DNA of 64,000 nucleotides, taken from Candidatus Omnitrophota bacterium (GTDB taxonomy: Bacteria > Omnitrophota > Gorgyraeia > Velamenicoccales > JABMQK01). This document shows, one piece after another, positions 1,748-53,255 of this stretch (the first letter of the stretch is position 1; each line of letters opens with the position of its first letter). A model generated the notes under the pieces. That model searched no databases and was not told the origin of the DNA. It was given only the letters and a program-made list of their open reading frames with translations. The position numbers were made by a program, and so were the translations under genes. The stretch spans positions 902,032-966,031 of the forward strand of contig JAQTSV010000001.1 of the NCBI GenBank assembly GCA_028711115.1. Reading direction: 5' to 3'.

Positions 1748-1769
1748 AGCAATTAACCGGTTTAATTTT

Positions 1770-3268: not shown

Positions 3269-3286
3269 TTATTACCTTTCTTTTAA

Positions 3287-4342: not shown

Positions 4343-4363
4343 TTCTATCTCCTAGGGAAATTA

Positions 4364-6872: not shown

Positions 6873-6891
6873 TTTAGATACTTCCCCCTTT

Positions 6892-10232: not shown

Positions 10233-10238
10233 AAAATT

Positions 10239-13088: not shown

Positions 13089-13092
13089 GTTT

Positions 13093-31059: not shown

Positions 31060-31061
31060 AG

Positions 31062-37510: not shown

Positions 37511-37512
37511 AA

Positions 37513-38286
37513 TTAACCCCGTTTTTTCGCTACTACGGTAATATCCCAGTCGCTGGGCTTAATTTTTCTTTTAAGATTCGAAAAAGGAAAAACTCCCAAT
37601 ACGCTAAAACCGTTTTTCTCTAGTATCGACTTCATCTCATTAACAAAAAAATACCTTACGAGGTGAGATTCTCTGGACTGGCTTCTTTCTTTGGTCGCTT
37701 TATCCAAAACGCTGACCTTATAATTTACGCGGCATAGGTTCTTCGTAGGAAAAATATCTGTTTTTGACTCGCGTTCGATCACTAAATTCTTATAAACGAA
37801 CTTTTTCTTTTTATAAGGCGTATAATTTTTAACAACTACCGCGCCGTTCCAAAAATCAAAAATAAAAAGAGAATCTTTTTTAAGGCATTGCCGCACATTA
37901 AATATAAATCTTTCAAGATCTTTATAGTCGGTAAGGTAATCTATTGTGGAAAACATGGAGATAATGGCGTCAAACTTTTTATCGCACTTTAAATTTTGCA
38001 TCTTCATGCAACAATATTTGACCTTCAAAGAATTTGTTTTTGCTTTCTCGCCAGCCCTTTTAAGCATATGCTTCGATGCGTCTATACCGGTGACGGAGTA
38101 ACCCATTTTGGCAAGAATGTTCGCGTGGCCGCCGGTTCCGCAAGCAACATCAAGGATGGATTTGGGTTTATTTATAGAGAATTTCTTAAAAATATCCTCT
38201 AAAAACCTGCATTCTTTCTTATAGTCTTTATTTCTATAAAAAATATCGTAAAAAAAGGCGTAATCTTTATCAAAAACTTTTTTCAT
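37513..38286 (-). CDS. Class I SAM-dependent methyltransferase
   Basis: ILDVACGTGGHANILAKMGYSVTGIDAS (motifs I/II). Confidence 0.8.
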   Translation of the reverse strand: MKKVFDKDYAFFYDIFYRNKDYKKECRFLEDIFKKFSINKPKSILDVACGTGGHANILAKMGYSVTGIDASKHMLKRAGEKAKTNSLKVKYCCMKMQNLKCDKKFDAIISMFSTIDYLTDYKDLERFIFNVRQCLKKDSLFIFDFWNGAVVVKNYTPYKKKKFVYKNLVIERESKTDIFPTKNLCRVNYKVSVLDKATKERSQSRESHLVRYFFVNEMKSILEKNGFSVLGVFPFSNLKRKIKPSDWDITVVAKKRG

Positions 38287-38288
38287 GC

Positions 38289-39386
38289 TTAAAATGATTT
38301 TATAATTTTTACAACTGACTTTATCTGTTCTTCTTTTAAGCCGCTCCCCGAGGGTAAATATAGGCCTGTGGCCGCCAATATGTCTGTCGTGGGATATTTT
38401 TCACCGCGGAATAATCCCATCTTCTTAAAAACCGGCTGCCTGTGCATTCCTATAAAGAAATCCCGGGTTTCGACTCCTTTGTCTTTCAGGTAACTCACAA
38501 AAGCCTTTTTCTTATTCTTCATTTTACCCTTCAAAGTAATGCCATACATCCAATAAACATTTTTAGCGTAGGATTTTTCTACGGGAGTATTTATCCAATC
38601 AATATCATTTAACAAGTTGTTGTAAAGAAAAGCGTGCTTTCTTCTTAAATTGACAAATTTATCTATGTTTTCCAATTGCGCCAGGCCTATTGCCGCCTGA
38701 ATGTTTGTCATGCGATAATTAAAACCTATCTCATGATGGATAAACCTTCTTTTTATGAAAGACAAATTTTTGAGCAATTTTAATTTCTCAGCTATCTTTT
38801 TATTGCTGGTTAAAACCATGCCGCCTTCGCCGCAAGTTATAATTTTATTGGCGTAAAAACTAAAACAAGCCACATCGCTCAACGAACCGATAATCTTTCC
38901 CTTGTAGAACGCTCCATGCGCTTCTGCCGCGTCTTCTACAACGTATAAATTATATTTTTTGGCGATTTGTCTTATGGGATCCATATCGCAGGGATGGCCG
39001 TAAATATGCACAGGGAGTATTGCTTTTGTTTTTTTGGTGATTTTCTTTTCAATCAGACTTACGTCGATATTTCCCGTATCTAATTCTGCGTCTACCAATA
39101 CGGGCTTTGCGCCTACATAACAAATTGCAAAGACAGTGGAAATCATGGTAAAAGACGGAACAATTACTTCGTCGCCTTTTTTAATACCCAATGCCGCTAG
39201 CGCTAAATGCAGAGCTGTTGTTCCGTTTGTCGTGGCTACGCCGAATTTTACATTGCAATAAACAGAAAATTTCTCCTCGAATTCCGAGATATATTTACCT
39301 TGAGAAGAAATCCAATTCGTCTTAAAACAATCTGTTACATATTGCAATTCTTTTCCTGTTAAAAACGGAGTGCAAACCGGTATCAT
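38289..39386 (-). CDS. DegT/DnrJ/EryC1/StrS family PLP aminotransferase (NDP-4-keto-sugar aminotransferase)
   Basis: CTPFLTGKELQYV, NGTTALHLAL, and FSFYANKIITCGEGGMV containing the PLP lysine. Confidence 0.85.
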   Translation of the reverse strand: MIPVCTPFLTGKELQYVTDCFKTNWISSQGKYISEFEEKFSVYCNVKFGVATTNGTTALHLALAALGIKKGDEVIVPSFTMISTVFAICYVGAKPVLVDAELDTGNIDVSLIEKKITKKTKAILPVHIYGHPCDMDPIRQIAKKYNLYVVEDAAEAHGAFYKGKIIGSLSDVACFSFYANKIITCGEGGMVLTSNKKIAEKLKLLKNLSFIKRRFIHHEIGFNYRMTNIQAAIGLAQLENIDKFVNLRRKHAFLYNNLLNDIDWINTPVEKSYAKNVYWMYGITLKGKMKNKKKAFVSYLKDKGVETRDFFIGMHRQPVFKKMGLFRGEKYPTTDILAATGLYLPSGSGLKEEQIKSVVKIIKSF

Positions 39387-39387
39387 G

Positions 39388-39792
39388 TTACTCCTTTACT
39401 TTAAGGTATACTTTATTTTTTTCGCTGTATGGGCCTTCTTTCACTTCTATCAGATGCGATTTCTCCAGAAATTTGAATCCGTGCGCACCGCTTAACAAAA
39501 TCAAAAGGTCTCCTGTTTTAATTACCTTTTTACAAAATAACTTTGTGCCTTTTACATAGAAATGGACTTCGACTTTACCTTTTTTAACATAAAGCACTTC
39601 CTGTGTCGGCTCTTCACGCACCACCTTCAACTCTCTGTGCTTATGAGGTTTTATATTATGTTCTTTTGGATAAATCAGCATACCAACCTGAAAGGCGCTG
39701 TTTGCGCTGGTAAAGAAATGAGCGCCGTCCTCTAAAAAACTATTTCTTACAATCATACCCAAAATCTTATTCTTGTATTTAATTGTTTCCAT
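39388..39792 (-). CDS. Small cupin-fold protein (FdtA/WbuC-like sugar-nucleotide isomerase candidate)
   Basis: 134 aa. IKPHKHRE His pair and beta-rich cupin pattern. 2 nt from the aminotransferase start. Confidence 0.45.
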   Translation of the reverse strand: METIKYKNKILGMIVRNSFLEDGAHFFTSANSAFQVGMLIYPKEHNIKPHKHRELKVVREEPTQEVLYVKKGKVEVHFYVKGTKLFCKKVIKTGDLLILLSGAHGFKFLEKSHLIEVKEGPYSEKNKVYLKVKE

Positions 39793-39795
39793 ATT

Positions 39796-40797
39796 TCACT
39801 CCTCTTTTTTAAAAATACTCCTTAAAGAATATTTAAATAAATTAATTATCGTAGAAGGGATTGAACCCAACGCCTCAATTTTTCCCGTAGTTAAAAATAT
39901 ATAAAAGAAATAACAGTTCTGGAACCCTAAATAAAGGATAAAGCGAGTAGCTTTATCCAGAGTATTTGGCTTAATGTATCTAAAGTAAAACCTGATAAAA
40001 TTTTCAATTCTATGATAGGAATTAAACCTTTTGGAGAAAAAACCTTGTTTGCTGGGAAAATGCGAGATAATCGCCATGGGGTTAAATACCGTAATAAAAC
40101 CCAGCCGCCTTAATTTATAGGCAACATCGGAATCGCTGAATTCTGAAGTCACAATGTAGCTGTCGTCGAAACCGCCGATTTTCAAAAGTAAATCCATCCT
40201 CACCGCCATATTGCAGGATTCGTGGTGGTCGACTTCGATAATCTTATCTATCTTCAGAGCGTCGGGAAAATTGGCGCCAAAAGAAAACGCACCGCTTCTG
40301 AAATCTTTACAAACCGAAAAAGCCTGTCCTTCCAGGAAATAATCAAAGTATATTTTCCCCAGCAACTTCCAAAATATATTTCCTTTCTTGAATTTCTCAT
40401 GGAATATAAAAACGTCCCTGTTTTTTAAATATTCTTCAGGTGTAATAACCGGGCCTGTAACGCCGCCTATCTTAGGAGAAGATTCAAATGTAGCATTAAC
40501 CGCATTAAGCCAGTCCGGCGTAACGGTAATATCATCGTCTGCTCTGAGAAAAATCTCTCCGCTACTAACTTGTATCCCGGTGTTTACTGCATCGGTAAAA
40601 CCTTTGCCTTTTTGCACAATATATTTTATGGCCAGAGAATCTTTGAATTCATCCGGCAACATATCCGTTCCGTCAGTAGAACATGCGTCTACAATAACCA
40701 CTTCAAAGTTTTTATATGTCTGTTTCTTAAGGGACTCCAAAAGCCTTGCCAGATTATCCCGACGATTATATGTAGGAATTACTATTGATATTTTCAT
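39796..40797 (-). CDS. GT2 glycosyltransferase, type B copy 2
   Basis: SIVIPTYNRRDNL, IVDACSTDGT, RADDDITVTP, KGNIFW. Paralog of 32972..33973. Confidence 0.8.
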   Translation of the reverse strand: MKISIVIPTYNRRDNLARLLESLKKQTYKNFEVVIVDACSTDGTDMLPDEFKDSLAIKYIVQKGKGFTDAVNTGIQVSSGEIFLRADDDITVTPDWLNAVNATFESSPKIGGVTGPVITPEEYLKNRDVFIFHEKFKKGNIFWKLLGKIYFDYFLEGQAFSVCKDFRSGAFSFGANFPDALKIDKIIEVDHHESCNMAVRMDLLLKIGGFDDSYIVTSEFSDSDVAYKLRRLGFITVFNPMAIISHFPSKQGFFSKRFNSYHRIENFIRFYFRYIKPNTLDKATRFILYLGFQNCYFFYIFLTTGKIEALGSIPSTIINLFKYSLRSIFKKEE

Positions 40798-41468
40798 TAA
40801 ATTCTAATTAGACTTAAACAAACGACGCCTTTAACTTCCTGGCGGCTATCCACATCCTCAACATCTTGTCTTTCAACCTTTGTCCACACCGGCCATCTCT
40901 TTTTAAAGTATGCTGCTTCTTCAATTTTAATCCCCGGTATATCTAATAAGTTTTTTAATAATTTCTCATTGTATATTTTATGCGGCGCCTCGATATATAA
41001 ATTATTTATCTCACCACTACCATATGGCATAGAAATAAATATCTGACCATCCTTCTTCGTTACCCTGACAATCTCTTCCAGCGCTTTTTTGTCCCCGGAG
41101 AGGATATGTTCCAGGGTAGAAATTGAAATGGATGCGTCAAATTTCTCATTCTCAAAAGGTAAACTGCAAATATCAGACCGGACAAAACTATAGTTTGGGT
41201 AATTATGGATAAATTTTGAATCATCTCCTTCTTTAAAATCAACACCAAACACATCAAAACCCAAAGAAGCCAAATAAGAAATCATCAAGCTATTGGCACA
41301 GCCAAAGTCTGCCACTTTTCCTTTTTTTAATTTAAGTCTGGTAAGCACAAAAGGATACTCGCAAGTCCTCTCTTGATACATAGGCGATAAACGGCAGTTT
41401 AATTTCCAGAACAACCGAATAAATCCCTGTCCTATAAAATTTATTACGCGCCCAACTATCATAAACAT
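40797..41468 (-). CDS. Class I SAM-dependent methyltransferase
   Basis: VADFGCANSLMISYLASLGFDVFGVD (motifs I/II), ISTLEHI, DGQIFISMP. Confidence 0.6.
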   Translation of the reverse strand: MFMIVGRVINFIGQGFIRLFWKLNCRLSPMYQERTCEYPFVLTRLKLKKGKVADFGCANSLMISYLASLGFDVFGVDFKEGDDSKFIHNYPNYSFVRSDICSLPFENEKFDASISISTLEHILSGDKKALEEIVRVTKKDGQIFISMPYGSGEINNLYIEAPHKIYNEKLLKNLLDIPGIKIEEAAYFKKRWPVWTKVERQDVEDVDSRQEVKGVVCLSLIRI

Positions 41469-41530
41469 CTCCTGTGTTTTCTATTTATTGAAGCCTTCTT
41501 AATCTTAAACAAAAATGGTAATACATACCT

Positions 41531-42931
41531 TCATGACGGTTTTCTTGCATTAAAATCATTGATTGCTCTATTCCTGAAAAATAAACTAAAGCCCTCCCTT
41601 AGGTCTCTTTTTATTTTTACCCAGGAAGTAAAATCTCTCCTGATTCTGTTAAGTATATAGCTTGGGCGGAGATAAAATTTGCGATATGTTAAATCTCTCA
41701 TCTCTATTAAATAATCCTGCGTTAACCCCCGAGGAACATAATAAGGCCAACACCCCTCATATCCTTCACCATAACTACCGTTGATAAACTTATCTATCAC
41801 ATCCTTATCTATTATGCCTTCCTGGATAGCCTGTTCGAACAAAGGCGCGCCCGGTAAAGGCATAACAAGAAAAACTCCTATTATATTAGGCTCAAATCTC
41901 AGAGAACAATCAACCGTGTCTAAAATCTCCTTCTTGGTCTCCGTAGGCTGGCCTATCATTAAATAGTGATCTGGTTCTATGCCCGCCTGCCAGCAAAGAG
42001 CAGTAGCTTCTATAATCTGTTTATCGGTAATGCCTTTGCCGATAATCTGATTTCTTATTCTTTCATTTCCCGATTCTATGCCGAATAATAATTTCTGACA
42101 ACCCGCCCTTTTCATAGTCTTAAGGAGTGGTTTGTCCACATAGTTGATACGAGACTGCGCCTCCCATATAATCCGAAACGGTAACCTCATAATATGCTCA
42201 CAAAGCGAATACACAAATTTCTTATCTATGGTCAAAGCATCGTCACAAAAAATAATCGCCTTTCTGCCGGTTAGCTTGACGCACTCTTTTATTTCCTCAA
42301 CTATAAGTTGCGGCGAGCGGAAACGCACTCTTTTGTCTATAGCCGGAATACTGCAAAAATTACAATGATAAGGGCAGCCTCGCGTAGCAAAAACAGCACT
42401 TGCCCAGGACCCCCTCTTAAAATATGTTTTATAATCTATAATATTCCTGGCGGGAAAAGGCAACCTGTCTAAATCCAAAGGCGTCTGGCCTTTAATAAAC
42501 CCGCGAATTCCCTTCCCGCTGATTAAGTCTTTTGCAACTTCAGGAAAAGTCAACTCCGCTTCCCCTCCGATACCCACATCAAAATAAGGAAAACGCTCTA
42601 TCAAAGTATTGTCGGCACTTATGTGTGGGCCGCCCAAGACAATATTCTTACAGCCACCCTCTTTTAAAAACCTGGCTAATTGCACAGCCCCCTTTATATT
42701 CTGGGTCATCGCCGTGATGCCGATAACATCAAAATTTTGTTCTTTGATAATATGTATTATTTTATCTAGGCTGAGATTATTATTAGAGGCGTCGAGGTAT
42801 TTGACAAAAAAACCTTCCTTGATAAGGGAAGATGCCAGATAAAGTAAACCCAAATTCGGACAATCAGGAATCTTTGCAGAAACCTTTTCCTTAAAAGAAA
42901 CCGGAGGTTGTATTAAAAGTACTTTTCCCAT
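41531..42931 (-). CDS. B12-binding-domain radical SAM enzyme (class B), copy 1
   Basis: N-terminal cobalamin-binding-like domain (GLLYLASSL..., DVIGITAMT, VLGGPH), then ATRGCPYHCNFCS (CX3CX2C). Confidence 0.8.
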   Translation of the reverse strand: MGKVLLIQPPVSFKEKVSAKIPDCPNLGLLYLASSLIKEGFFVKYLDASNNNLSLDKIIHIIKEQNFDVIGITAMTQNIKGAVQLARFLKEGGCKNIVLGGPHISADNTLIERFPYFDVGIGGEAELTFPEVAKDLISGKGIRGFIKGQTPLDLDRLPFPARNIIDYKTYFKRGSWASAVFATRGCPYHCNFCSIPAIDKRVRFRSPQLIVEEIKECVKLTGRKAIIFCDDALTIDKKFVYSLCEHIMRLPFRIIWEAQSRINYVDKPLLKTMKRAGCQKLLFGIESGNERIRNQIIGKGITDKQIIEATALCWQAGIEPDHYLMIGQPTETKKEILDTVDCSLRFEPNIIGVFLVMPLPGAPLFEQAIQEGIIDKDVIDKFINGSYGEGYEGCWPYYVPRGLTQDYLIEMRDLTYRKFYLRPSYILNRIRRDFTSWVKIKRDLREGFSLFFRNRAINDFNARKPS

Positions 42932-42934
42932 TGG

Positions 42935-43756
42935 TTAAGGATTATTCTTTCTGGCTACACACCATATGTCGGTTGAAAAAAAATGTCTGAGCACAGGCAA
43001 GGTCAAAACTTTAGAGATTAAATAATTATCGCAGATAATATCCAATAATTCTGCGGTTCTTTTTAAAATAAGATTATAGTCCGGCCCTAAATTTTGGCAC
43101 CAGAAAGCCTTTCTCTTTTCATACCAGATTTTTGCGCTGCTGCCGAAAACCGGAATCAATAATCTCTTCATGGAAATTGCAGTCTGAACATTAGGATGAA
43201 GATGTTTGGAAGAAGACTTTACGCCCAAAATCCCCATTATAAAATGGATAGTATTAATTAACCATTTAGTAGGATAAGTATGAATAATTAATACACCGTT
43301 GGGTTTTAACATTTTACGAATTTTGGGGATTATAATTTCTAATTCCCAGGTGTATAAATGCTCAAAAACATCGAGCATAAAAATTACATCAAACATATTG
43401 TCTTTAAAATCTATTTCTTTCAAATCTTTCTGTATAAGATAGATATTTTCTTTTTGTTCTTTTGGCAAAGCATTAATCGATTCTTTAGCTATGTCCACTG
43501 CGCTCTGGGCATAATCAACACCATAGCAAATATCGCCCCTTTTGGCATATTCTCTGAGCAATTCGCCCCTTCCGCAGCCTAAATCAAGAATAACTTTTTT
43601 CTCTATATTCTTAGTCATGCTTTCAGACAATCCCATAACTCTTATATAAATCTCGCCTAACTTATTATTAAGATATTCACTGGCCCCACCAGCATGCATA
43701 AAATAATCATGGGTATACTGAGCGGAATCAACGCTGGGCTGTTTATGATTTCCCAT
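42935..43756 (-). CDS. Class I SAM-dependent methyltransferase
   Basis: ILDLGCGRGELL, YGVDYA, FMLDVFEHL, NGVLIIHT. Confidence 0.8.
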   Translation of the reverse strand: MGNHKQPSVDSAQYTHDYFMHAGGASEYLNNKLGEIYIRVMGLSESMTKNIEKKVILDLGCGRGELLREYAKRGDICYGVDYAQSAVDIAKESINALPKEQKENIYLIQKDLKEIDFKDNMFDVIFMLDVFEHLYTWELEIIIPKIRKMLKPNGVLIIHTYPTKWLINTIHFIMGILGVKSSSKHLHPNVQTAISMKRLLIPVFGSSAKIWYEKRKAFWCQNLGPDYNLILKRTAELLDIICDNYLISKVLTLPVLRHFFSTDIWCVARKNNP

Positions 43757-43782
43757 TATAATAACATCCTCCGAGATTATGC

Positions 43783-45231
43783 TTATCTCAGTTGCCCTGA
43801 AAGAAACGCATAAATAATTTGTCCAATTTTATTGTTCAGCGCAAAATCACTGAACAACTTCCGCAAACCCGGAATTACAGTAACATAATAAACCACCGAA
43901 CCCAATGCGCCTCCCAAACGCCATATTAAGATTCTCTTATAGTAATAATTATGACCAAGTTTGGTAATTCTCTTTCTCTGTCTCTCCGTAAATTCCTTTG
44001 TTTCGAAAATAGGCATATCATCATAAGTAGACAAATTCCTTAGATATTTATTCTTATCTACCAGAAAACGGCCATTGCTTAATATCCACTCGTACGCCTC
44101 TGTGCCGGGATAAGGAATAAGATTGGAAAAATTTACATAATTAGAATCCAGGGATTTGGCAAATTTTAAAGTATCCAGCGCCTGTTTATACGTTTCGGTG
44201 GGATGGCCTATGATAAAATTAACGCAACTATCAATTCCTGCTTCTTTCGTCCATTTTACGGCATTGCGGACCTGATCTAATGTTATATTCTTTTTTATAT
44301 TCTTTAGGACTTCGGGGTTTCCGCTCTCACAGCCGAAAGCCAGAAAATAAAAACCCGCCTTTTTCATTTTCTTAAACAATTCTAAATTCACCCTATCAAC
44401 ACGCAGGCCGCTGTAGCATTGAAAACGGATTTTTAAACCGCTGTCTATTACTAAATCACAAATTTTATTTGCACGTTCGATATCCAAAGAAAAACAATCA
44501 TCATTTATATCAAATGCCCTGTAGCCTTCATTAAAGCGCTGTTTTATTTCCTGAAAAACATTTTCGGCTGAACGGCTTCGGAATGTCTTCCCCATAGATA
44601 ATAGCGTGGAACAATATGTACAGCTGTAAGGACAACCCCTGGAAGTAATCAGTGCGGTCGAATGATGTTGTGCGCAAAAATATTCGTTAACATCGAAAAG
44701 GCTGTAATCGGGAAAAGGCAGTTCATCTAAATTCAAATTATTCATAAATTCCCTGTCCTGATTTTCAATAATTTGGCCATCTTTTTTCCAAATAAGATTA
44801 TTTATATCGGAGAAATCTTTTTTATTCCGGGTAAGCGCCTCTGCCAATTCTAATAAACTATATTCTCCTTCCTTTTTAACCGCAAAATCTACTTTAGAAT
44901 CTCCTAAAACAGCACTCTTCGCTACAGAAACATGCGGACCGCCTAAAACCACAGGAATATCAAAATTAGTTTTTATTTTTTCTATACAATCTACGGCGTA
45001 ATCATAACAATAGCTGAAAGAAGTAACACCCACCAAATCAGGTCTAAATTCCTTAACCGAATCCACCAAAGAAAGGCTATTCTTTAAGCCGTCATCGTAA
45101 ACCTTCACTTCGTAGCCATGCTTTTTTAAAAAAGCTCCCAAATAGGCAATACCGATATGAGGATGCCCTGGCGGCGTATATTTATGTCCGAGTAAAGACT
45201 TGTTTTTGGGAATAATTAACTGAATTCTCAT
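43783..45231 (-). CDS. B12-binding-domain radical SAM enzyme (class B), copy 2
   Basis: GIAYLGAFL, LVGVTS, VLGGPH, then TSRGCPYSCTYCS (CX3CX2C). Confidence 0.8.
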   Translation of the reverse strand: MRIQLIIPKNKSLLGHKYTPPGHPHIGIAYLGAFLKKHGYEVKVYDDGLKNSLSLVDSVKEFRPDLVGVTSFSYCYDYAVDCIEKIKTNFDIPVVLGGPHVSVAKSAVLGDSKVDFAVKKEGEYSLLELAEALTRNKKDFSDINNLIWKKDGQIIENQDREFMNNLNLDELPFPDYSLFDVNEYFCAQHHSTALITSRGCPYSCTYCSTLLSMGKTFRSRSAENVFQEIKQRFNEGYRAFDINDDCFSLDIERANKICDLVIDSGLKIRFQCYSGLRVDRVNLELFKKMKKAGFYFLAFGCESGNPEVLKNIKKNITLDQVRNAVKWTKEAGIDSCVNFIIGHPTETYKQALDTLKFAKSLDSNYVNFSNLIPYPGTEAYEWILSNGRFLVDKNKYLRNLSTYDDMPIFETKEFTERQRKRITKLGHNYYYKRILIWRLGGALGSVVYYVTVIPGLRKLFSDFALNNKIGQIIYAFLSGQLR

Positions 45232-46061
45232 GGTTTTCTGATAATTTTATCCTTAAAATAGCTGAGAATACCCGCAAAAGTTGCAATACCTTTTACAAAA
45301 TAGAGATAAAACAAACCCATCAATAAAAGCGGATTTTTGAATGCCTTTGGCGAAAAATATGCCCGTCGAGGTAAACTATGGTGAAAAACCAAGTTTGCAT
45401 CTTTTTTTAAAGCTGGCACATAGTAATATCCGTATCTTTTAAATTTCTTAAATACGTCCCGAAATGTCGGTGTTTCATAATGATAGATATGCGAATCTAT
45501 AAATTTTACCTTTGCACCCATCTTGACTATTTCATTATGTATCATGGAATGCTCAAAGGTTATGGGTGGATTATTCAGAAAATCAATTCTTTTCATATAT
45601 TCTGCCTTAAAGAACCTGGGAATTGCAGTGCCATGGATGGGATCATCATCGTGCAGCGAATGGAACAGCCACTTATCATAGGCGATAATTCTTTCAGCGA
45701 GCGTATTCTTGGTTATCCTTGATTTTTCAAAAAGAGTAACTACGTCAAACCCTCTTTCTTCGCAAACCGCTACACATCTTTCTACGGTATCATTATCTAA
45801 AGTCTGATCCGAATCTACCAAGAAGATATATTTACCAGAACTATTTTCCACTCCGACTTTTCTGGCAAGCGCAAGTGAATCTGCAGTAAAAATATTTGCG
45901 CCATATTTTTTTGCTATCTCAATGGTTCTGTCCTTGCTGAAAGAATCTATAATAATCACCTCTATATTTTTGTAGGTCTGATTGGCAATTGAAACCAAAG
46001 TTTCCTCAAGTGTCTTGCCGGAATTATATGTAGGAATATTTATAGAAACGCGTTCGCTCAT
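45228..46061 (-). CDS. GT2 glycosyltransferase
   Basis: ORF extends to 46133, but the internal Met (MSERVSINIPTYNSGKTL) gives a typical GT2 N-terminus and removes a 70-nt overlap with the upstream gene. IIDSFSKDRT, LVDSDQ. Confidence 0.75.
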   Translation of the reverse strand: MSERVSINIPTYNSGKTLEETLVSIANQTYKNIEVIIIDSFSKDRTIEIAKKYGANIFTADSLALARKVGVENSSGKYIFLVDSDQTLDNDTVERCVAVCEERGFDVVTLFEKSRITKNTLAERIIAYDKWLFHSLHDDDPIHGTAIPRFFKAEYMKRIDFLNNPPITFEHSMIHNEIVKMGAKVKFIDSHIYHYETPTFRDVFKKFKRYGYYYVPALKKDANLVFHHSLPRRAYFSPKAFKNPLLLMGLFYLYFVKGIATFAGILSYFKDKIIRKP

Positions 46062-46063
46062 TA

Positions 46064-47017
46064 TTAAACCCTTTCTCTCCAGTAATCCAATAAATCCTGT
46101 AGTGTTCTTTCCAGGGGAATTTCTGGCTTCCATCCGGTTTGCTTTCTGAATTTAGAACAATCCCCTATTAAAATTTCAACATCAGAAGGCCTTAAGCGCC
46201 TGGGGTCTTTCTTTATGGAAATCTTTTCATTTGTAAGTTTTAATAATATCTTGAGGGCTTCTTTTATAATTATGCCTTTGCCGCTGCAAATATTATATTC
46301 CTCTCCGGGTTTTCCTTTTTCTAAAGCCAGCCAATACCCTTTTACCATATCCCTGACATCCGTAAAATCCCGTATGGCGTTTAAATTTCCCACTTCCATC
46401 ACCGGCTTTTGGCTGCCTTTTTCTATTAACGCTATTTGTTTTGCAAAATTAGAGGTAACAAAATTCTCTCCTCGCCTCGGTCCTGTATGATTAAAACCTC
46501 TGGTCCTTACAATAAACATGTTGTAACTTTGATAATATTGATAACCCAACAAATCCTGCGCAACCTTGCTTACCCCGTAAGGGCTTAAAGGCCTTAAAGG
46601 ATTTGTTTCTTTGATAGGAACCTCATTTTTATATACCATTCCGTACTCTTCGCTGGAACAGGCTATTTGAATTTTTGTTTTCAGTCTTAACTTTCTTACG
46701 GCCTCGAATATATTGAGTTCACCGATAATATTGGTAGTCAGAGTATCGTGTGGCGCTGACCACGATGTGGGAACGAATGACTGAGCGGCGAGATGAAAGA
46801 TTAAATCCGGTCGTATCTTTTCAATTACAGAATTTGTAGAAAAAGGATCTGTTAAATCGCATTCGATGAGTTTTATCTTGTCTTTTATGTGCTGAATATT
46901 ATCCAATCTGCTCAACCACCTATCAATTCCAAATACGTTTACATTATTCTTATCGAGTAAGAATTCTGCCAAATGGCTGCCTACGAACCCTGCTATTCCT
47001 GTGATTACTACTTTCAT
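46064..47017 (-). CDS. GDP-mannose 4,6-dehydratase family extended SDR (Gmd/Rmd-like)
   Basis: VVITGIAGFVGSHLAEFLL, CSSEEYG, YGVSK (YxxxK). 317 aa. Directly downstream of manC. Confidence 0.65.
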   Translation of the reverse strand: MKVVITGIAGFVGSHLAEFLLDKNNVNVFGIDRWLSRLDNIQHIKDKIKLIECDLTDPFSTNSVIEKIRPDLIFHLAAQSFVPTSWSAPHDTLTTNIIGELNIFEAVRKLRLKTKIQIACSSEEYGMVYKNEVPIKETNPLRPLSPYGVSKVAQDLLGYQYYQSYNMFIVRTRGFNHTGPRRGENFVTSNFAKQIALIEKGSQKPVMEVGNLNAIRDFTDVRDMVKGYWLALEKGKPGEEYNICSGKGIIIKEALKILLKLTNEKISIKKDPRRLRPSDVEILIGDCSKFRKQTGWKPEIPLERTLQDLLDYWRERV

Positions 47018-47061
47018 GTTTTGCCTTCCTTTCGCTATGGCTATAGACTTTTCTGCTAAGA

Positions 47062-48486
47062 TTAGTTTTTATTCTTATGTGATTTTAGCCGTTCGAAATC
47101 ATCCTCAAATCTTTCTATATCATCCTCACCCAAGTAACTGCCTGTCTGCACTTCGATAAAAGTGAGTTTGTGATTTTCGTTATTTTCTATTCTGTGTCTT
47201 TGGCCGCGCGGCACATAAATACTCTCGTTACTCTTTACAAAATAAGTTTTATTTCCTATGGTAACTTTTGCAATGCCTTCCACGACTATCCAGTGCTCTG
47301 CGCGTCTTTGATGCAACTGAAGGCTGAGGCGTCTATGCGGCTCAACTTCTACCATTTTGGTTTTGAATCTTCCGGTATCATTCAAAACAAAATACCTCCC
47401 CCATGGTCTATTGACTAATCGTGGAGTCATATACTCAAAACGCTTCCTGGCTTTAAGAATATCTACTACTTCGGAAACTCTTTGTGCCTGTTCTTTGGGA
47501 CAAACTAAAAGCGCATCCGGCGTATCGGCGATAATCATATCTTTCAAACCCATAGCCACTACTAAATGATGACCACCCCAGACTGTAGTATTTTTAGTAT
47601 TTAAGGTTAAGACATCTCCGTAAATGGCATTCTTATTCTTATCACGATTCAGCACAAAATCTATGGTGTTCCAGTTTCCTAAATCTGTCCAGCCGCAATC
47701 CAAAGGCGCAACATATAAGCTGTCTTTACATTTCTCCATAATTCCGTAATCAATGGAAACGCTGTCCAGGGCATTCCATTTTCTTGTAAGCGACTTTTTG
47801 TTTTTCTCACCAAGCACGGAATAAAGTCTAGGCATAAATTTTTTAATCTTTTCTAACAAAACAGAGGCCTTCCAGATAAAAATCCCTCCATTCCAATAGA
47901 CTGTGCCTTGTTTGATAAGATTTTCCGCTAAACCAAGTTTGGGTTTCTCAATAAATTTTTCTACTTTGAAAGCAATCCTTTTCAAAGGCGATACCTTCTT
48001 ATTTATCTTAATGTACCCATAAGCGCTTTCCGCCCGCAAAGGCTTAATACCAAAAATTAACATAGTATTGAGTTTAGCCAATGCAAAAGATTTCTTTAAA
48101 ATAGCTGAGAAGACATTTTCTTTCTTGATAAAATGATCCGCCGGAAAAACAGCCATTACACCGTCGGGGTCTTTTTCTTGGATGATTTTTGCTACCAGCC
48201 CTATAGACGCAGCTGTATTTTTTGGCGAGATTTCTACGATTATATTATCTAAACAAAAACCTAATTCCTTAAGCTGATATCTTATGGCCTCGTCATAATC
48301 CTTATTGGTCACCACGTAAACATTTCGCGCTGGTATAATTTTAGAGATGCGTAAATACGTATGCTGCAAAAGAGAATAATTACCGAATATCTTGAGCAAC
48401 TGCTTTGGTTCTTCCTGCCTGCTCAAAGGCCAGAATCTTATTCCCTTACCACCTGCTAAGATTACTGCGTAATTCATCTTTTTCAC
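47062..48486 (-). CDS. manC: Mannose-1-phosphate guanylyltransferase / mannose-6-phosphate isomerase (bifunctional, type II PMI cupin)
   Basis: AVILAGGKGIRFWPLSR nucleotidyltransferase loop. C-terminal RPWGRY...LQLHQRRAEHWIVVEG...PRGQRHRIEN cupin. Confidence 0.9.
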   Translation of the reverse strand: MKKMNYAVILAGGKGIRFWPLSRQEEPKQLLKIFGNYSLLQHTYLRISKIIPARNVYVVTNKDYDEAIRYQLKELGFCLDNIIVEISPKNTAASIGLVAKIIQEKDPDGVMAVFPADHFIKKENVFSAILKKSFALAKLNTMLIFGIKPLRAESAYGYIKINKKVSPLKRIAFKVEKFIEKPKLGLAENLIKQGTVYWNGGIFIWKASVLLEKIKKFMPRLYSVLGEKNKKSLTRKWNALDSVSIDYGIMEKCKDSLYVAPLDCGWTDLGNWNTIDFVLNRDKNKNAIYGDVLTLNTKNTTVWGGHHLVVAMGLKDMIIADTPDALLVCPKEQAQRVSEVVDILKARKRFEYMTPRLVNRPWGRYFVLNDTGRFKTKMVEVEPHRRLSLQLHQRRAEHWIVVEGIAKVTIGNKTYFVKSNESIYVPRGQRHRIENNENHKLTFIEVQTGSYLGEDDIERFEDDFERLKSHKNKN

Positions 48487-48520
48487 TCCCTTAAATTATA
48501 TTTACGTTGTTAGAACCAAA

Positions 48521-49441
48521 TCATTCTAAACTTGCGATAGCAACGATTTCTCTGTCCTTAGAGCCAAATCGTATATTGTCTAAAATAGACATTATTTCTC
48601 CGTAGATGTGTTTCAGCAGGAAATAAAACTTTTTCTTGTCTGAAGGCACTCTGTAATTTAAATTTTGCCAGGAATTGCCCAGAACCACCTTGGACCTGAA
48701 GTAACAATTTAAAAGATTCCCAATGCTGGCTTGTCCGTCTGTCTTCATAAAGCCTTTTAAACCCGCTTTATCAAATAATAAATTCAGGGTGTCTTTACTA
48801 AAGTAAAAAAGATGCTCAAAAGGTTTTAAGTCTCCAAGGAAACTTTGAATTTTAGAAGAAAGCATAACGCTTTCAACGTTCGGTACTCTGATGTAAATAA
48901 TCCCGTCTTTGGCTAAAAAATTTTTAACCAGTTTTAAATATTCGAGAGGATTTTCAAAATGTTCCAACACATTATCCATCACAATCACATCAAATTTATT
49001 ATTATGTCTGAAATTTGCGATATCAGCCATATAGCAATCTAATCCTTGTTTTCTTGCATATGTTATAGCATTTTCACAAATATCCATGCCTGTGGCATTC
49101 CAGCCCTTAGAAATAAAAAACTCCATCAAAAAACCATAAGAGCATCCGATATCAAACAAGTTGCCCGGCTTTTTCTTATAACGAGAAATCTCTTGGTAGC
49201 ACGCCTTCATTTTATTTTTCCAATAATATTTATTCTTGATAACATAAGGACTGCTCTCATAAATATTATTATATATCGCCTCCAAAGAGCCGACTTGCCT
49301 GATTGTCTGTTGATAGCATAGATTGCATTTCTTACAATGAATGATTACAAAATCTTTGTGATTAATATAAATCTCTGCGCTACTATTATCATCACAAATT
49401 ATACAATTTTTAATTACCATTGTATCTTTATTTGAAATCAA
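48521..49441 (-). CDS. Class I SAM-dependent methyltransferase with N-terminal CxxC...CxxC zinc ribbon
   Basis: CIICDD...CKKCNLCY, then LFDIGCSYGFLMEFF, GMDI, MDNVLEHF, DGIIYIRVPN. Confidence 0.8.
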   Translation of the reverse strand: MISNKDTMVIKNCIICDDNSSAEIYINHKDFVIIHCKKCNLCYQQTIRQVGSLEAIYNNIYESSPYVIKNKYYWKNKMKACYQEISRYKKKPGNLFDIGCSYGFLMEFFISKGWNATGMDICENAITYARKQGLDCYMADIANFRHNNKFDVIVMDNVLEHFENPLEYLKLVKNFLAKDGIIYIRVPNVESVMLSSKIQSFLGDLKPFEHLFYFSKDTLNLLFDKAGLKGFMKTDGQASIGNLLNCYFRSKVVLGNSWQNLNYRVPSDKKKFYFLLKHIYGEIMSILDNIRFGSKDREIVAIASLE

Positions 49442-50879
49442 ATATATGCCCTATGACCTTTTTAAAACCCCTGAAGAAATATTTGATATCATTTGCATCT
49501 CTTATGGACATCATTCTTCTTAGAATAAATTCGGGGTTATAAGCAACGCTATAAATACCGTAAACCAATTCTGACATTTTATTCTTATCAAAAGCAGTTT
49601 TCATGACAGGATTCTTCATATCGTAATCATCCCAGTCTTGGCTTGTCAATTCACCACAGGATTTACATTCTTCAAATAATTTGCTGCCCGGATAAGGTAT
49701 GACTATTGTAGCCTGTACTGTATAGGCAATGCCTTTCTTTAAAAGCCATCTACCCAATTCAAGAGTCTTTAATGCATCTTCGTATGTCTCCCAGGGATAA
49801 CCGAACATTATGGTAATGTGAGGATAAAGCCCTGCTGCCTTTGCCATTTTGCACGACTTAATTATATCTTGGACGTTCAAATTCTTATTTATTTTATCCA
49901 GAGTCTTCTGATTGGCAGATTCAAGGCCGAACAATACCAATCTAAAGCCAGCCTTTTTCATCATCGCGTATTCTTCTTGCCCCAAGACTCCAAATCTCAT
50001 ATTGCAATCAATATTGACTTTTCTGTTAAGCCTTCTATTCATCATGCCTTCACAAAATTCAACAAGCCACTTTCCGACGGGGAAAGTGCCGGTGTCGTCC
50101 ATTATCTCCCTTACCCTGTATTTTTCCACCAACATATCTATTTCGTCGAGAACGCTGACAGGAGTCCTGGCTCTGAATTGCGGATATAACGTCGGCCAAG
50201 AACAGAATTTGCACTTACCCCACCAGCAATCACGCCCGGACATTATATATGTTCCCGGGGTCCTTTTGAAATTGCCGTTCTTGAAGGCGTATAATTTCCA
50301 ATTTGTCAATTCCCTGTCAATAAAAGGTAAACCGTCCAAATTGTGATTTAAAATAAACTGACCGGAGTTTTTAATTTCTGCATTATTCCTATAATATATG
50401 CCTGGCTCAAAACTATCATATGAACCCCCGTCTTTTAAAACACGGCATAAATTAAGCAGAAGGAAGTCGTAGTCGCCGCCGGTTAAAATAAAGTCGACTT
50501 GGGAATTTCGCATTGATTCTTCCGGCAATGCCGTAACATGATCGCCGCACAATACAACTTTAATTTTTGGATTCTGTTTTTTAATCTCGTCTATTATCTT
50601 CCAGTGTTGTTTGACAACAGGCGTCTTTGTTTCCATGGCAATGATATCGGGACTTTCTTTCTGAATAAATTCATAAAACTCGGGTTTTTCTATATTTTTA
50701 GCGATACAGTCTTTCCATAAAATATCAAAACCATCTTCTTTCAATAAAGTAGCTGCACAAGCTGGCACCACAGGATAAATATATGTCGGTTCCTTAAAAT
50801 ATTGAAACTGCCTGTTCTGGGAAAGCAGAGGCGTCCCCTTGGTTTTATCAAGCGGCGGATAGGTAAAGATTATCTTCAT
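49428..50879 (-). CDS. B12-binding-domain radical SAM enzyme, copy 3, with atypical CX4CX2C cluster motif
   Basis: N-terminal B12-like domain (DIIAMETKT, VVLCGDH). The cluster motif reads GRDCWWGKCKFCSW, verified on the DNA at 50202..50228. Confidence 0.7.
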   Translation of the reverse strand: MKIIFTYPPLDKTKGTPLLSQNRQFQYFKEPTYIYPVVPACAATLLKEDGFDILWKDCIAKNIEKPEFYEFIQKESPDIIAMETKTPVVKQHWKIIDEIKKQNPKIKVVLCGDHVTALPEESMRNSQVDFILTGGDYDFLLLNLCRVLKDGGSYDSFEPGIYYRNNAEIKNSGQFILNHNLDGLPFIDRELTNWKLYAFKNGNFKRTPGTYIMSGRDCWWGKCKFCSWPTLYPQFRARTPVSVLDEIDMLVEKYRVREIMDDTGTFPVGKWLVEFCEGMMNRRLNRKVNIDCNMRFGVLGQEEYAMMKKAGFRLVLFGLESANQKTLDKINKNLNVQDIIKSCKMAKAAGLYPHITIMFGYPWETYEDALKTLELGRWLLKKGIAYTVQATIVIPYPGSKLFEECKSCGELTSQDWDDYDMKNPVMKTAFDKNKMSELVYGIYSVAYNPEFILRRMMSIRDANDIKYFFRGFKKVIGHIFDFK

Positions 50880-51832
50880 AGCTCTTCTCTTAATCTAAAC
50901 GATAAAAAACCTTTAATAAAATTTAGCCCGTATGTCAAATGAGTCAATATTGAACCGGCGAATACATAAAAAGATAACTTAAGGCTTTTCTGAATACTGA
51001 AAACAAAAACAAAAAGTAAATAAAAAAGGGGCACATAAAAGAATCTTAAATCTGAAACCAAACCAAGGATTAACGAACCTAAAATAATAGCCGTCATAAT
51101 AGAAGGAATAAAGTATCCGAATTTAAGCGAAGTTTGCGGATAGCGTTTCAAAAAATAACCTCTGTGTGTAGCATAACTGACTATCTGGGAGAGATGTTTC
51201 TTAAAAAGCTGCCTTCTGTGGTGATATACAATAACCGCAGGGTCGTATAATATTCTTTTCTTTAGTTTATGCACAACCTCAAGGCACAAAATCGTATCCT
51301 CGCCAGGCCAAAACTTTGTCTTGAAACCTCCTATCTCTTGGAAAATATTATTTCTTATAAAAAAGTTACACGACGGAAAATCGTCTGTAAAACGCTTTCT
51401 TAAGGGGACATAGCGGAATCTGGCCGGACCACTGATTATCAAAGACTCATACACCTTACCGCTGGCTTTATTCAAAAATGGCTCGTTTTCCGGAGTTACA
51501 GCCGGGCCGCCTACGCAGGCGATTGATTCCTCATTAAAATTTATCACTGCATTCTTTAGCCAATCGGCTGTGGGATAGGTATCATCATCTAAGAAAGCAA
51601 GTATTTCGCCGCTGGCGTTACTGGCACCGATATCTCTTTTTGCAGCTGGCAGGGCCTTACCAGTGGCGATAATTTTTATATGTCTTTCATTATAAACACC
51701 CATCATATCGTCTGGCAGAATAATAACTTCAAAAAAAGGATAATCTAACTTAATGCAATGATCCACGCATTCTTCCAGCAAAGGATTATTCTGTTTTACG
51801 GCAATTATTATGGACACCGAGGGAAATATCAT
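50876..51832 (-). CDS. GT2 glycosyltransferase with C-terminal TM segments
   Basis: VSIIIAVKQNN, FLDDDTYP. C-terminal hydrophobic helices (FIPSIMTAIILGSLILGLV, FYVPLFYLLFVFVF). Confidence 0.7.
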   Translation of the reverse strand: MIFPSVSIIIAVKQNNPLLEECVDHCIKLDYPFFEVIILPDDMMGVYNERHIKIIATGKALPAAKRDIGASNASGEILAFLDDDTYPTADWLKNAVINFNEESIACVGGPAVTPENEPFLNKASGKVYESLIISGPARFRYVPLRKRFTDDFPSCNFFIRNNIFQEIGGFKTKFWPGEDTILCLEVVHKLKKRILYDPAVIVYHHRRQLFKKHLSQIVSYATHRGYFLKRYPQTSLKFGYFIPSIMTAIILGSLILGLVSDLRFFYVPLFYLLFVFVFSIQKSLKLSFYVFAGSILTHLTYGLNFIKGFLSFRLREEL

Positions 51833-51842
51833 ACCTAGACGT

Positions 51843-53255
51843 CTACTGCTCCTGGTTTTTAAACATATTATGTAAAACTAATTTTATGGCATTGAATACT
51901 AACCGCAATTGCTTTATGGATTTTACCCTTCTAATCTGTGAAATTATCTTGCCCGGCCTTAGATAGAATTCCCTGTATGCCCTCTTTTGCCAATAAATTA
52001 TTCTCTGGGGCTCTAAACCTGCCAACCGGTGTACTGGTTTGGTGTATATGCCATAATCATCGTAATTATCGCTTAATAGTAAATTATCTTTTTTCAATTG
52101 CTTATAAACCTCACTACCCGGGTAAGGTTTTAAAATATAGAATTTTGCAAAATCGGGGTCTATCTCTTTAGAAAAATCTATTGTCTCTCTGATAGTATAC
52201 TCTGACTCTCCGGGTAATCCGAATATCAAAAAAGCCCACGTTTCGAAGCCTAATTCTTTAGAAAGCTTGAAGGCTTTTTTTGTTGTCTCAAGAGGTATAT
52301 GTTTTTTGATATTCTTTAAAATTTCGGGATTTGCCGATTCAACGCCGTAACCAACCGTTTTAAAACCTGTTTCCTTCAGTGCCGTCAATATATCCCTATC
52401 TACAAAATCGGCTCGCAAGCCATTCATGAACTGAAAATTTACTTTAATATTCTGGTTTTTTATCTCCCTGCAAAAATCCAGAACTCTTTGCTTTATCAGA
52501 GTAAAGGTATCGTCCGCTATGTGAATTTCTTTTATGCCATTTCTATTAATGAGCTCTTTAATCTCTGCAATTATATTTTTAACGCTTCTTGCGCGAAATC
52601 TCCTGGAAAAAATTTGTTTTACGCAACAAAAAGAACATTCACCCGGACAGCCTCTGGAAGTAATTATTGTAGCGACTGGTAAGTCTGTCGCATCCGGCGG
52701 CATAAAGGCATTGGCATTCTTAATCAGGGCTATGTCTGGAAAAGGAAGCATATCTAAATTATCTATCAAAGGCCGCGCAGCGCATATTGTCGGACGGCCT
52801 TTTTCCTTAAACCAAATGCCCTTGATATTTCTCAAGTTCGGTGAGGGCTGTTCTAATTCCCTGAATAATTCATCAGCCGTTGCCTCCCCTTCGCCTACCA
52901 CGACAATATCAACAGAATCATTTACTATAATTTCTTCCGCGGTTATCGTGGCGTGGATTCCACCTAAAACGACAGGTATATTCTTAATCCCTTTTGATAT
53001 CCTTGCCCACTTTAGGGCATCATTTATTGTGGGCGTAACGCTTGTTATGCCCACGGCAGCGGGGTCAAATTCCTTAAAGACATCTTTAAATTTGTCTTCG
53101 TTTATACCTTCTGTATCAATATCTAATAATCGCACCTCGTGGCCAGAATTCTTTAAAACTGTCCCCACATACAATAAACCTAATGGCGGATAGGCCGGCA
53201 TTAGCTTTATACCGTATACTTTCTCCTGAGAAGGATTAATCAAAAGTATCTTCAT
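51843..53255 (-). CDS. B12-binding-domain radical SAM enzyme (class B), copy 4
   Basis: PLGLLYVGTVL, AVGITS, VLGGIH, then TSRGCPGECSFCC (CX3CX2C). Confidence 0.8.
   Translation of the reverse strand: MKILLINPSQEKVYGIKLMPAYPPLGLLYVGTVLKNSGHEVRLLDIDTEGINEDKFKDVFKEFDPAAVGITSVTPTINDALKWARISKGIKNIPVVLGGIHATITAEEIIVNDSVDIVVVGEGEATADELFRELEQPSPNLRNIKGIWFKEKGRPTICAARPLIDNLDMLPFPDIALIKNANAFMPPDATDLPVATIITSRGCPGECSFCCVKQIFSRRFRARSVKNIIAEIKELINRNGIKEIHIADDTFTLIKQRVLDFCREIKNQNIKVNFQFMNGLRADFVDRDILTALKETGFKTVGYGVESANPEILKNIKKHIPLETTKKAFKLSKELGFETWAFLIFGLPGESEYTIRETIDFSKEIDPDFAKFYILKPYPGSEVYKQLKKDNLLLSDNYDDYGIYTKPVHRLAGLEPQRIIYWQKRAYREFYLRPGKIISQIRRVKSIKQLRLVFNAIKLVLHNMFKNQEQ

Follow-up and report, generated by a model that had tools for sequence, protein, structure and literature searches.

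Sugar C-methylation by radical S-adenosylmethionine (SAM) enzymes that depend on cobalamin (B12) has been described for GenK, GenD1, MoeK5 and Fms7 (PMC12931638). GenK, GenD1/GntE, Fms7 and MoeK5 combine an N-terminal B12-binding Rossmann domain with a radical SAM core, and their genes lie among sugar-activating and glycosyltransferase genes. The same architecture and a similar setting are found in a 64-kb stretch of DNA from a Candidatus Omnitrophota bacterium (contig JAQTSV010000001.1, positions 902,032 to 966,031; referred to here as the window), where four radical SAM genes (rSAM1 to rSAM4) and five class I SAM-dependent methyltransferase genes (MT1 to MT5) are contained within a ~26-kb envelope-glycan operon (31947-57895 of the window) that is rich in glycosyltransferase family 2 (GT2) genes. 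Unlike the described enzymes, to which no close sequence relationship was shown, these proteins, none of which reached any NCBIfam equivalog cut-off, belong to a conserved Omnitrophota envelope-glycan operon with three to five radical SAM genes per locus and not to an antibiotic cluster, and one of them (rSAM3) has a CX4CX2C cluster motif. MoeK5 acts on a lipid-linked sugar and is a plausible analogue. The locus likewise resembles variable O-antigen and capsule loci in its glycosyltransferase-rich operon, its nucleoside diphosphate (NDP)-sugar genes, the Wzm/Wzt genes in the window and the gain and loss of tailoring genes between strains, but differs from them in holding several B12-binding radical SAM (B12-rSAM) genes and, in relatives, a radical SAM-methyltransferase fusion. 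In the literature searched we found no description of a B12-rSAM in O-antigen, capsule, lipopolysaccharide or Omnitrophota glycan loci. Class B radical SAM architecture and variable surface-glycan loci are both known, while several B12-rSAM orthogroups in one conserved envelope-glycan operon, and the recurrent fusion of a B12-rSAM to a glycan-type methyltransferase, are unusual.

The initial annotation of this DNA described rSAM1, rSAM2 and rSAM3 as each directly followed by a class I methyltransferase gene (MT1, MT2 and MT3, respectively) and rSAM4 as followed by a GT2 gene, and proposed that the pairs could be two-enzyme modules that arose by duplication. All of these open reading frames (ORFs) are present on the minus strand (Table 1), and Pfam analysis confirmed the three pairs and the GT2 after rSAM4. 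Each of rSAM1 to rSAM4 has a B12-binding domain (PF02310; 45.2-87.9 bits) N-terminal to a Radical_SAM domain (PF04055; 69.5-98.2 bits), against gathering cut-offs of 32.1 and 29.5 bits, respectively, while MT1 to MT3 match Methyltransf_11/25/23 with 50-80 bits. The methyltransferases do differ from one another, as had been noted, with MT3 carrying an N-terminal CxxC...CxxC zinc ribbon, MT2 a C-terminal extension, and motif I reading DFGCANS, DLGCGRG, DIGCSYG, DVACGTG and DLGCGNA in MT1 to MT5. MT4 and MT5 are two further class I methyltransferases of the same operon, neither of which is next to a radical SAM gene, and all five proteins score above the gathering thresholds for Methyltransf_11/23/25. 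A reported 14-nt overlap between rSAM3 and MT3 holds if MT3 starts at a TTG (49441), but an ATG at 49420, 7 nt past the rSAM3 stop codon, is favoured by the NCBI model (299 aa) and by ortholog alignments that start at residues 4-8; MT1 probably starts at its second ATG (41462), which lies behind an AGGAG site. Taking these data together with the gene order in relatives described below, we consider it likely that the region makes up the tailoring core of an envelope-glycan or glycolipid operon, one that is conserved yet variable, and that the three dyads are a by-product of accessory-gene insertion, not copies of a module.

We gathered ~20 related loci (L numbers) and mapped their ORFs to the window proteins using BLASTP. 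A scan of genome contigs with rSAM1 returned two true orthologous loci, with the remainder being 21-32% identical paralogs from other phyla which provide a superfamily-level control, while a scan of metagenomes with an alignment of rSAM1 orthologs returned 10 mostly short contigs. MT5 was located downstream of rSAM1 in 11 of the 12 loci long enough to judge. Its ortholog directly follows that of rSAM1 in L002, L073, L085 and L088, with the two genes 1 nt apart or overlapping by 4 nt in L088 and L085, and in three cluster representatives both are joined in a single protein, rSAM1::MT5: P0135 (708 aa; L091:7544-9670), P0145 (707 aa; L001:16269-18392) and P0147 (707 aa; L086:3217-5340). In these fusions the rSAM1 part is 65-70% and the MT5 part 55-61% identical to the window orthologs. 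In the rSAM1 tree, the fused L086 sequence pairs with that of L085 (97%), where the genes are adjacent and unfused, and the fused L001 sequence groups with L072/L088 (64%), of which L088 is again adjacent and unfused; since the L001 and L086 fusions fall in different clades, there were probably at least two independent fusion events. Members of the MT5 family are elsewhere fused to GT1/GT4, FkbM, TylF, sulfotransferase and SPASM radical SAM domains, which are typical glycan-tailoring partners.

By the Rosetta-stone criterion these fusions mark rSAM1 and MT5 as a putative functionally linked pair, and by gene order the conserved partner of rSAM1 is MT5 and not MT1. In the window itself the two are separated by MT1 and an amino-sugar cassette. 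The general suggestion that a B12-rSAM and a polar methyltransferase form a functional unit is thus borne out for rSAM1, with a different methyltransferase from the one originally paired with it. An AlphaFold2 (AF2) model of the fusion P0145, which served as a stand-in for the prediction of a two-protein complex, had a mean predicted local distance difference test (pLDDT) score of 85.9 and a predicted template-modelling score of 0.69, with a pLDDT of ~95 in the radical SAM part; no confident interface between the radical SAM and methyltransferase domains was observed in this model, in which the linker (residues 465-540) and part of the methyltransferase domain were of low confidence.

Examination of the same loci showed that rSAM2 is followed by MT2 in 2/15 (the window and L089), rSAM1 by MT1 in 1/17 (the window only) and rSAM3 by MT3 in 3/7 (the window, L002 and L091). 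In 11 loci (L001, L002, L004, L070, L071, L077, L080, L083, L085, L088 and L091) rSAM2 abuts rSAM1 with no room for a gene between them, and outside the window the one locus with MT2 between rSAM2 (82% identity) and rSAM1 (74% identity) is L089, a close relative's contig of 1.9 kb. L070/L071, which have neither MT1 nor MT2, form a clade with the window in the rSAM1 tree (100% bootstrap) that L089 joins at 89%, and MT2 is therefore confined to this small clade. MT2 is also rare in general, with two homologs at 64% identity and the next at 37% among 5.8 billion clusters. The sole MT1 ortholog found (65% identity; L086:2519-3178) is directly upstream of the rSAM1::MT5 fusion and not downstream of rSAM1. 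The place of MT3 is a different one in L083, where it comes after ManC, and in L085, where it comes ahead of rSAM2, and the gene was absent from L001, L080 and L088 when their ORFs were mapped. Likewise, rSAM4 has no counterpart at its position in L001, L002, L003 and L083, where the flanking GT2 genes abut, and its best homologs among the fetched loci are only 35-38% identical. In L074 and L087, rSAM1 is followed by another methyltransferase. MT1 and MT2 have an unremarkable GC content, both overall and at third codon positions, and composition thus gives no hint that these two genes were recently acquired from a foreign source.

When 12 related loci were pooled, 6/36 radical SAM genes were followed by a methyltransferase, where 4.9 would be expected (p = 0.37). 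If fusions are included among the adjacencies the count rises to 9 against 6.0 expected (p = 0.11), and with rSAM1-MT5 set aside 3 were observed against 4.0 expected. Adjacency of a radical SAM gene and a downstream methyltransferase across the related loci is therefore at chance. Likewise, of 65 distant rSAM1-like loci of other phyla 51 yielded a downstream neighbour, and the 25 most frequent Pfam families of these neighbours included no class I methyltransferase family. As conserved dyads, the rSAM2/MT2 and rSAM1/MT1 pairs are consequently not supported, these adjacencies being rare, while rSAM3/MT3 is kept in part of the loci.

The four radical SAM paralogs are 25-34% identical over >370 aa, with rSAM3 as the outlier and rSAM1-rSAM2 among the closest pairs. 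rSAM1, rSAM2 and rSAM3 each have 60-80% identical orthologs in other Omnitrophota and metagenomes, and compared with the identity between paralogs this indicates that the paralogy is far older than these species. Between the methyltransferases similarity is confined to the Rossmann core (38-131 aa), with identities of 19-30% (E 1e-4 to 1e-8) and MT1-MT2 as the weakest pair (19%; E 2e-5), so that they are as distant from each other as class I methyltransferases without any particular relationship. The local pattern itself, together with the radical SAM-methyltransferase fusions of relatives, could be read as three copies of an ancestral radical SAM plus methyltransferase module, duplicated as a unit and working as obligate two-enzyme complexes. 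We regard this as highly improbable, because the methyltransferases are unrelated beyond their fold and their pairwise pattern does not mirror that of the radical SAM proteins, MT1-MT2 being weakest where rSAM1-rSAM2 is among the closest. In addition, the radical SAM orthologs of relatives occur mostly with no adjacent methyltransferase and without these ones, MT2 is rare whereas the radical SAM families are large, and the methyltransferase found in fusions is MT5 and none of the three in the dyads. Even in the distant locus L087, which has the most regular methyltransferase-radical SAM-GT2 order, two of the three methyltransferase pairs have no significant similarity, and only M_a-M_c can be aligned (33% identity across 108 aa).

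Three of the radical SAM proteins have a CX3CX2C cluster motif (CPYHCNFC in rSAM1, CPYSCTYC in rSAM2 and CPGECSFC in rSAM4), while rSAM3 has the variant CX4CX2C, CWWGKCKFC (RDCWWGKCxFCSW), in which C218/C223/C226 are invariant in 40 cluster representatives. The rSAM3 family comprises 6212 homologs at E<=1e-20, with a mean column identity of 70%; the best 120 of the 6212 are 64-78% identical, and those matches with a named source are nearly all from Omnitrophota. No transmembrane segments were predicted in the radical SAM proteins, which are predicted to be soluble. A fifth B12-rSAM orthogroup (~515-525 aa; ~30% identical to rSAM4), not present in the window, was identified at L001:18481-19950, L083:14995-16542, L086:5351-6904 and L002:11526-13076, and is situated between MT5 and a 590-aa membrane protein gene in the first three of these, with L002 ending at this gene. 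L072:6838-12406 contains four tandem B12-rSAM genes (the rSAM1 ortholog and three paralogs), with no methyltransferase on the entire 15.7-kb contig, and L081:8108-8509 is a short rSAM2 fragment upstream of rSAM1 and an apparent pseudogene or deletion. L002 and L004, labelled Thermoproteota and Nanoarchaeota, are syntenic with the locus with genes that are 68-72% identical and are probably mis-binned, while L009, labelled Woesearchaeota, carries only a 28% identical radical SAM homolog.

Using NCBIfam, none of the radical SAM proteins or methyltransferases reached a curated cut-off. The top models for all four radical SAM proteins were HpnJ and BchE (149-217 bits against cut-offs of 577.6 and 481.35, respectively), and across the named B12-rSAM equivalogs (HpnJ, BchE, HpnR, PhpK, MgmA, ladderane rSAM and AprD4) the best scores were 149-217 bits against cut-offs of 360-750. 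HpnJ, which remodels a sugar head group, and BchE are non-methylating B12-rSAMs, and unlike in their settings there are no hopanoid or bacteriochlorophyll genes nearby. The closest solved proteins by sequence were AprD4, MgmA and TokK. In a sequence search of the PDB, rSAM1 was closest to AprD4 (6FD2; E 2e-20), a radical SAM 1,2-diol dehydratase that acts on a sugar ring in apramycin biosynthesis and that also scored highest against the model by target-normalised TM-score (0.72); however, identity is ~18%, the similarity covers mostly the radical SAM core, and we noted no gene for an AprD3-like reductase partner in the locus. According to PMC12931638, AprD4 itself binds no cobalamin, so a B12-like domain need not do so. 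In a Foldseek search with the AF2 model of the fusion, the solved cobalamin-dependent class members TsrM, TokK, OxsB, MgmA and CysS were matched (E 1e-15 to 1e-20), and the rSAM1 ortholog shares their fold, but as the non-cobalamin proteins AprD4 and MiaB matched as well, the fold is not discriminating and does not separate methylases from non-methylases. By analogy, the radical SAM proteins of the operon probably carry out radical C-H chemistry on sugar residues, most plausibly C-methylation as the commonest precedent, with AprD4-like or HpnJ-like chemistry as a conceivable alternative, and the class I methyltransferases probably carry out polar O- or N-methylation. The position of rSAM3 next to ManC and a 4,6-dehydratase gene suggests a guanosine diphosphate (GDP)-sugar substrate.

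The methyltransferases were also proposed to re-methylate or partner with the cobalamin enzymes, which could mean re-methylation of cob(I)/cob(II)alamin or a role in reductive activation. The best NCBIfam match of MT2 is indeed the corrinoid protein-associated methyltransferase CpaM, but its score (65.7 bits) is far below the cut-off of 180, and the same model matches MT4 (52.1 bits), which is not next to a radical SAM gene, and MT3 (20.4 bits). Furthermore, most radical SAM orthologs in relatives have no adjacent methyltransferase, the tandem array of four radical SAM genes in L072 occurs with none, and in structurally characterised class B enzymes such as TokK, TsrM and Mmp10 cobalamin receives its methyl group from SAM within the enzyme's own active site. 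This proposal therefore found no support and we judge it extremely improbable. We would also call it improbable that the B12-rSAMs modify a lipid anchor, by acyl methylation or cross-linking, with the methyltransferases tailoring the glycan independently. The operon does start with a monogalactosyldiacylglycerol (MGDG)-synthase-like glycosyltransferase and an LpxL/PatA-like acyltransferase, sub-threshold NCBIfam matches include the ladderane-lipid B12-rSAM, HpnJ and HpnR, and lipid-modifying radical SAM genes have been reported in Omnitrophota (10.1101/2023.10.20.563219). However, the radical SAM genes are interleaved with GT2, ManC and 4,6-dehydratase genes and not with lipid genes, and the family of the methyltransferase to which rSAM1 is fused is otherwise found joined to glycosyltransferases, TylF and sulfotransferases. 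An aminoglycoside sugar is the substrate of the solved protein nearest in sequence, and the radical SAM proteins have no predicted transmembrane segments.

In our preferred explanation, that of accessory-gene insertion, the lineage would have added rSAM4, MT2 (between rSAM2 and rSAM1), MT1 (immediately downstream of rSAM1) and the amino-sugar cassette, the last of which has come to lie between rSAM1 and MT5, its conserved partner, and the three adjacencies would mark where accessory tailoring genes landed in a tightly packed operon. The soluble B12-rSAMs would functionalise C-H positions of sugar residues or sugar nucleotides, with GenK, GenD1 and MoeK5 as the models for the proposed C-methylation, the class I methyltransferases would perform O- or N-methylation, and each tailoring enzyme would work on the sugar that a neighbouring GT2 has added. 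In the case of rSAM1 and MT5, the two may act consecutively on the same substrate, which we propose as the reason for their repeated adjacency or fusion.

Several points weigh against this explanation. The pattern in the window is nominally non-random: on shuffling the 24 cluster genes (4 radical SAM, 5 methyltransferase), 0.83 adjacencies were expected against the 3 observed, and at least 3 arose in 1.8% of shuffles (p = 0.018). Only ~20 loci were compared, with many short contigs among them; they are not phylogenetically independent, and their gene-order strings were encoded by hand. The best sub-threshold models (HpnJ and BchE) and the best PDB match (AprD4) are not methylases, C-methylation being only the commonest precedent, and cobalamin binding is predicted from the domain only. 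In addition, the MT1 ortholog beside rSAM1 in L086, the MT2 kept in L089 and the rSAM3-MT3 order in 3/7 loci leave room for some lineage-specific functional coupling. Such coupling could be recent but functional, with methyltransferases retained beside the radical SAM enzyme whose product they further methylate, for example placing an O-methyl beside a new C-methyl group. This would fit with three of the four radical SAM genes of the window being followed by a methyltransferase, with the MT1 ortholog again adjoining rSAM1 in L086, there on its other side, and with the retention of MT2 between rSAM2 and rSAM1 in L089. Of the five loci that have MT3, four (the window, L002, L083 and L091) keep it inside the rSAM3-ManC-dehydratase-GT2 block, and in the fifth, L085, it follows the GT2 and precedes rSAM2; the rSAM1::MT5 fusions show that radical SAM-methyltransferase cooperation exists in the system, and L087 has a repeating methyltransferase-radical SAM-GT2 order. 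None-the-less, pooled adjacency without rSAM1-MT5 is at chance, the positions of the methyltransferases shift between loci, the tight packing of all operon genes means that adjacency alone says little, and MT4, with the aminotransferase DegT, shows that methyltransferases of the locus can have a partner other than a radical SAM enzyme. We therefore consider recent coupling rather unlikely, and the three dyads, taken as a single repeated module, to be for the most part a chance outcome of gene order.

A nearly unbroken series of genes occupies the minus strand, and the window as a whole encodes envelope and surface-glycan functions. All four radical SAM proteins, MT2, MT3 and a neighbouring GAPDH match, with identical sequences, proteins of metagenome-assembled genomes named Candidatus Omnitrophota/Omnitrophica. 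Including the operon genes listed in Table 1, the window holds Wzm/Wzt with a Wzt_C domain, many GT2s, a GT87, two MGDG-synthase-like glycosyltransferases, an LpxL/PatA-like acyltransferase, a GT2-flippase fusion, ManC, 4,6-dehydratase-like short-chain dehydrogenases/reductases (SDRs) and two DegT aminotransferases. In the direction of transcription the operon order is MGDG-like glycosyltransferase, LpxL-like, GT2-flippase, GT2, rSAM4, GT2, rSAM3, MT3, ManC, dehydratase, GT2, rSAM2, MT2, rSAM1, MT1, GT2, 134-aa protein, DegT, MT4, GT2, MT5, 590-aa membrane protein, GT2 and GT2. When compared with relatives, the conserved backbone is GT2-GT2-rSAM3-(ManC-4,6-dehydratase)-GT2-rSAM2-rSAM1-MT5-GT-C-like membrane protein. 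In L001, L002, L003, L083 and L091 rSAM3 is immediately preceded by the ortholog of its upstream GT2, which in L080 stands two genes ahead of it, and the gene for the 590-aa membrane protein, whose L083 ortholog has a weak DUF6311 match, is no more than 1-2 genes downstream of MT5 in every relative that reaches that far, mostly directly after it. L003:11954-13765 encodes a NodU/CmcH-type carbamoyltransferase between rSAM1 and rSAM2, a further example of variable tailoring content.

Table 1. Features of the envelope-glycan operon in window coordinates, listed in the direction of transcription.
Feature	Coordinates	Strand	Basis and remarks
rSAM4, accessory B12-binding radical SAM	51843-53255	-	Pfam; GT2 directly downstream
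GT2, conserved core	50876-51832	-	Pfam and synteny
rSAM3, core B12-binding radical SAM	49428-50879	-	Pfam
MT3, class I methyltransferase with N-terminal zinc ribbon	48521-49441; probable start ATG 49420	-	Pfam, orthologs
ManC-type mannose-1-phosphate guanylyltransferase / mannose-6-phosphate isomerase	47062-48486	-	Pfam
NDP-sugar 4,6-dehydratase-like SDR	46064-47017	-	Related to GMD and LegB, below equivalog cut-offs
GT2, conserved core	45228-46133	-	Pfam and synteny; directly upstream of rSAM2 in most relatives
rSAM2, core B12-binding radical SAM	43783-45231	-	Pfam; usual downstream neighbour rSAM1
MT2, accessory class I methyltransferase, rare	42935-43756	-	Pfam and synteny; between rSAM2 and rSAM1
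rSAM1, core B12-binding radical SAM	41531-42931	-	Pfam; MT5 adjacent or fused in relatives
MT1, accessory class I methyltransferase	40797-41468	-	Pfam; between rSAM1 and amino-sugar cassette
Amino-sugar cassette	36467-40797	-	Pfam and presence/absence synteny
GT2 of cassette, upstream end	39796-40797	-	Pfam
134-aa protein of cassette	39388-39792	-	ORF
DegT aminotransferase of cassette	38289-39386	-	Pfam
MT4, class I methyltransferase of cassette, DesVI/TylM1-like	37513-38286	-	Pfam, PDB sequence matches
GT2 of cassette, downstream end	36467-37510	-	Pfam
MT5, class I methyltransferase, evolutionarily conserved rSAM1 partner	35754-36467	-	Pfam, synteny, fusions
590-aa polytopic membrane protein, GT-C-like, ~10 transmembrane segments and C-terminal domain	33985-35757	-	Hydropathy

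The five genes of the cassette (GT2, 134-aa protein, DegT, MT4 and GT2) behave as one block, which some loci have between rSAM1 and MT5 and others lack. It is complete at this position in the window, L080 and L081/82, occurs in a version without the 134-aa gene and DegT in L083/84, and is absent in L002, L085 and L088, while in L070 and L071 its upstream part follows rSAM1 and the contigs end before MT5. MT4 matches DesVI (3BXO; E 4.8e-14) and TylM1 (~1e-9), although unnamed methyltransferases score higher, and its gene is adjacent to that of a DegT aminotransferase; from the likeness to these sugar N,N-dimethyltransferases the block reads as an amino-sugar cassette. The 134-aa protein had no PDB match, and from size and context only our guess would be a cupin-type ketoisomerase.

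Elsewhere in the window we observed a nonulosonic-acid (legionaminic/pseudaminic-like) gene set at 163-10232, composed of NeuB, a 2-epimerase, a PglD-like acetyltransferase, DegT, a 4,6-dehydratase and a cytidylyltransferase, and adjoined by the Wzm/Wzt ABC exporter (region 163-13932), whose Wzt carries a C-terminal glycan-cap-binding domain. After the glycan operon there is a trio of genes for DUF4956, a 907-aa CotH-like protein and a VTC-domain protein (27662-31748); the DUF4956 and CotH-like genes also follow the operon in L080-L084, which end before the VTC position. A ParA/MinD-type ATPase fused to a CBM48/AMPK glycogen-binding module (59539-60630) is encoded near a GH57 glycoside hydrolase (61328-62866), with a 199-aa ORF (60684-61283) between them, an arrangement that is kept in L001; this fusion might position glycogen granules.

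Within dense, recombining glycan loci such as this one, adjacency in a single genome is weak evidence, and the three pairs should not be propagated as a 'module'. Sugar C-methylation by B12-rSAMs is known from antibiotic pathways, and in the literature searched we found no description of these enzymes in cell-envelope polysaccharide synthesis. As a tentative and, taken as a whole, doubtful possibility, an Omnitrophota envelope glycan would be modified by three to five cobalamin-dependent radical SAM enzymes, with rSAM1 and MT5 as a bifunctional unit giving C-alkylated and O-methylated sugars not yet described in any bacterial cell-surface polysaccharide, and with rSAM3 (CX4CX2C) representing a new functional class of B12-rSAM that acts on a GDP-mannose-derived sugar. 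The rSAM1::MT5 fusion, being a single polypeptide, and the very conserved rSAM3 are concrete experimental targets. Uncultured Omnitrophota share a conserved surface-glycan operon with several uncharacterised B12-radical SAM orthogroups, one of which, rSAM1, has a clear methyltransferase partner that is supported by the fusions.

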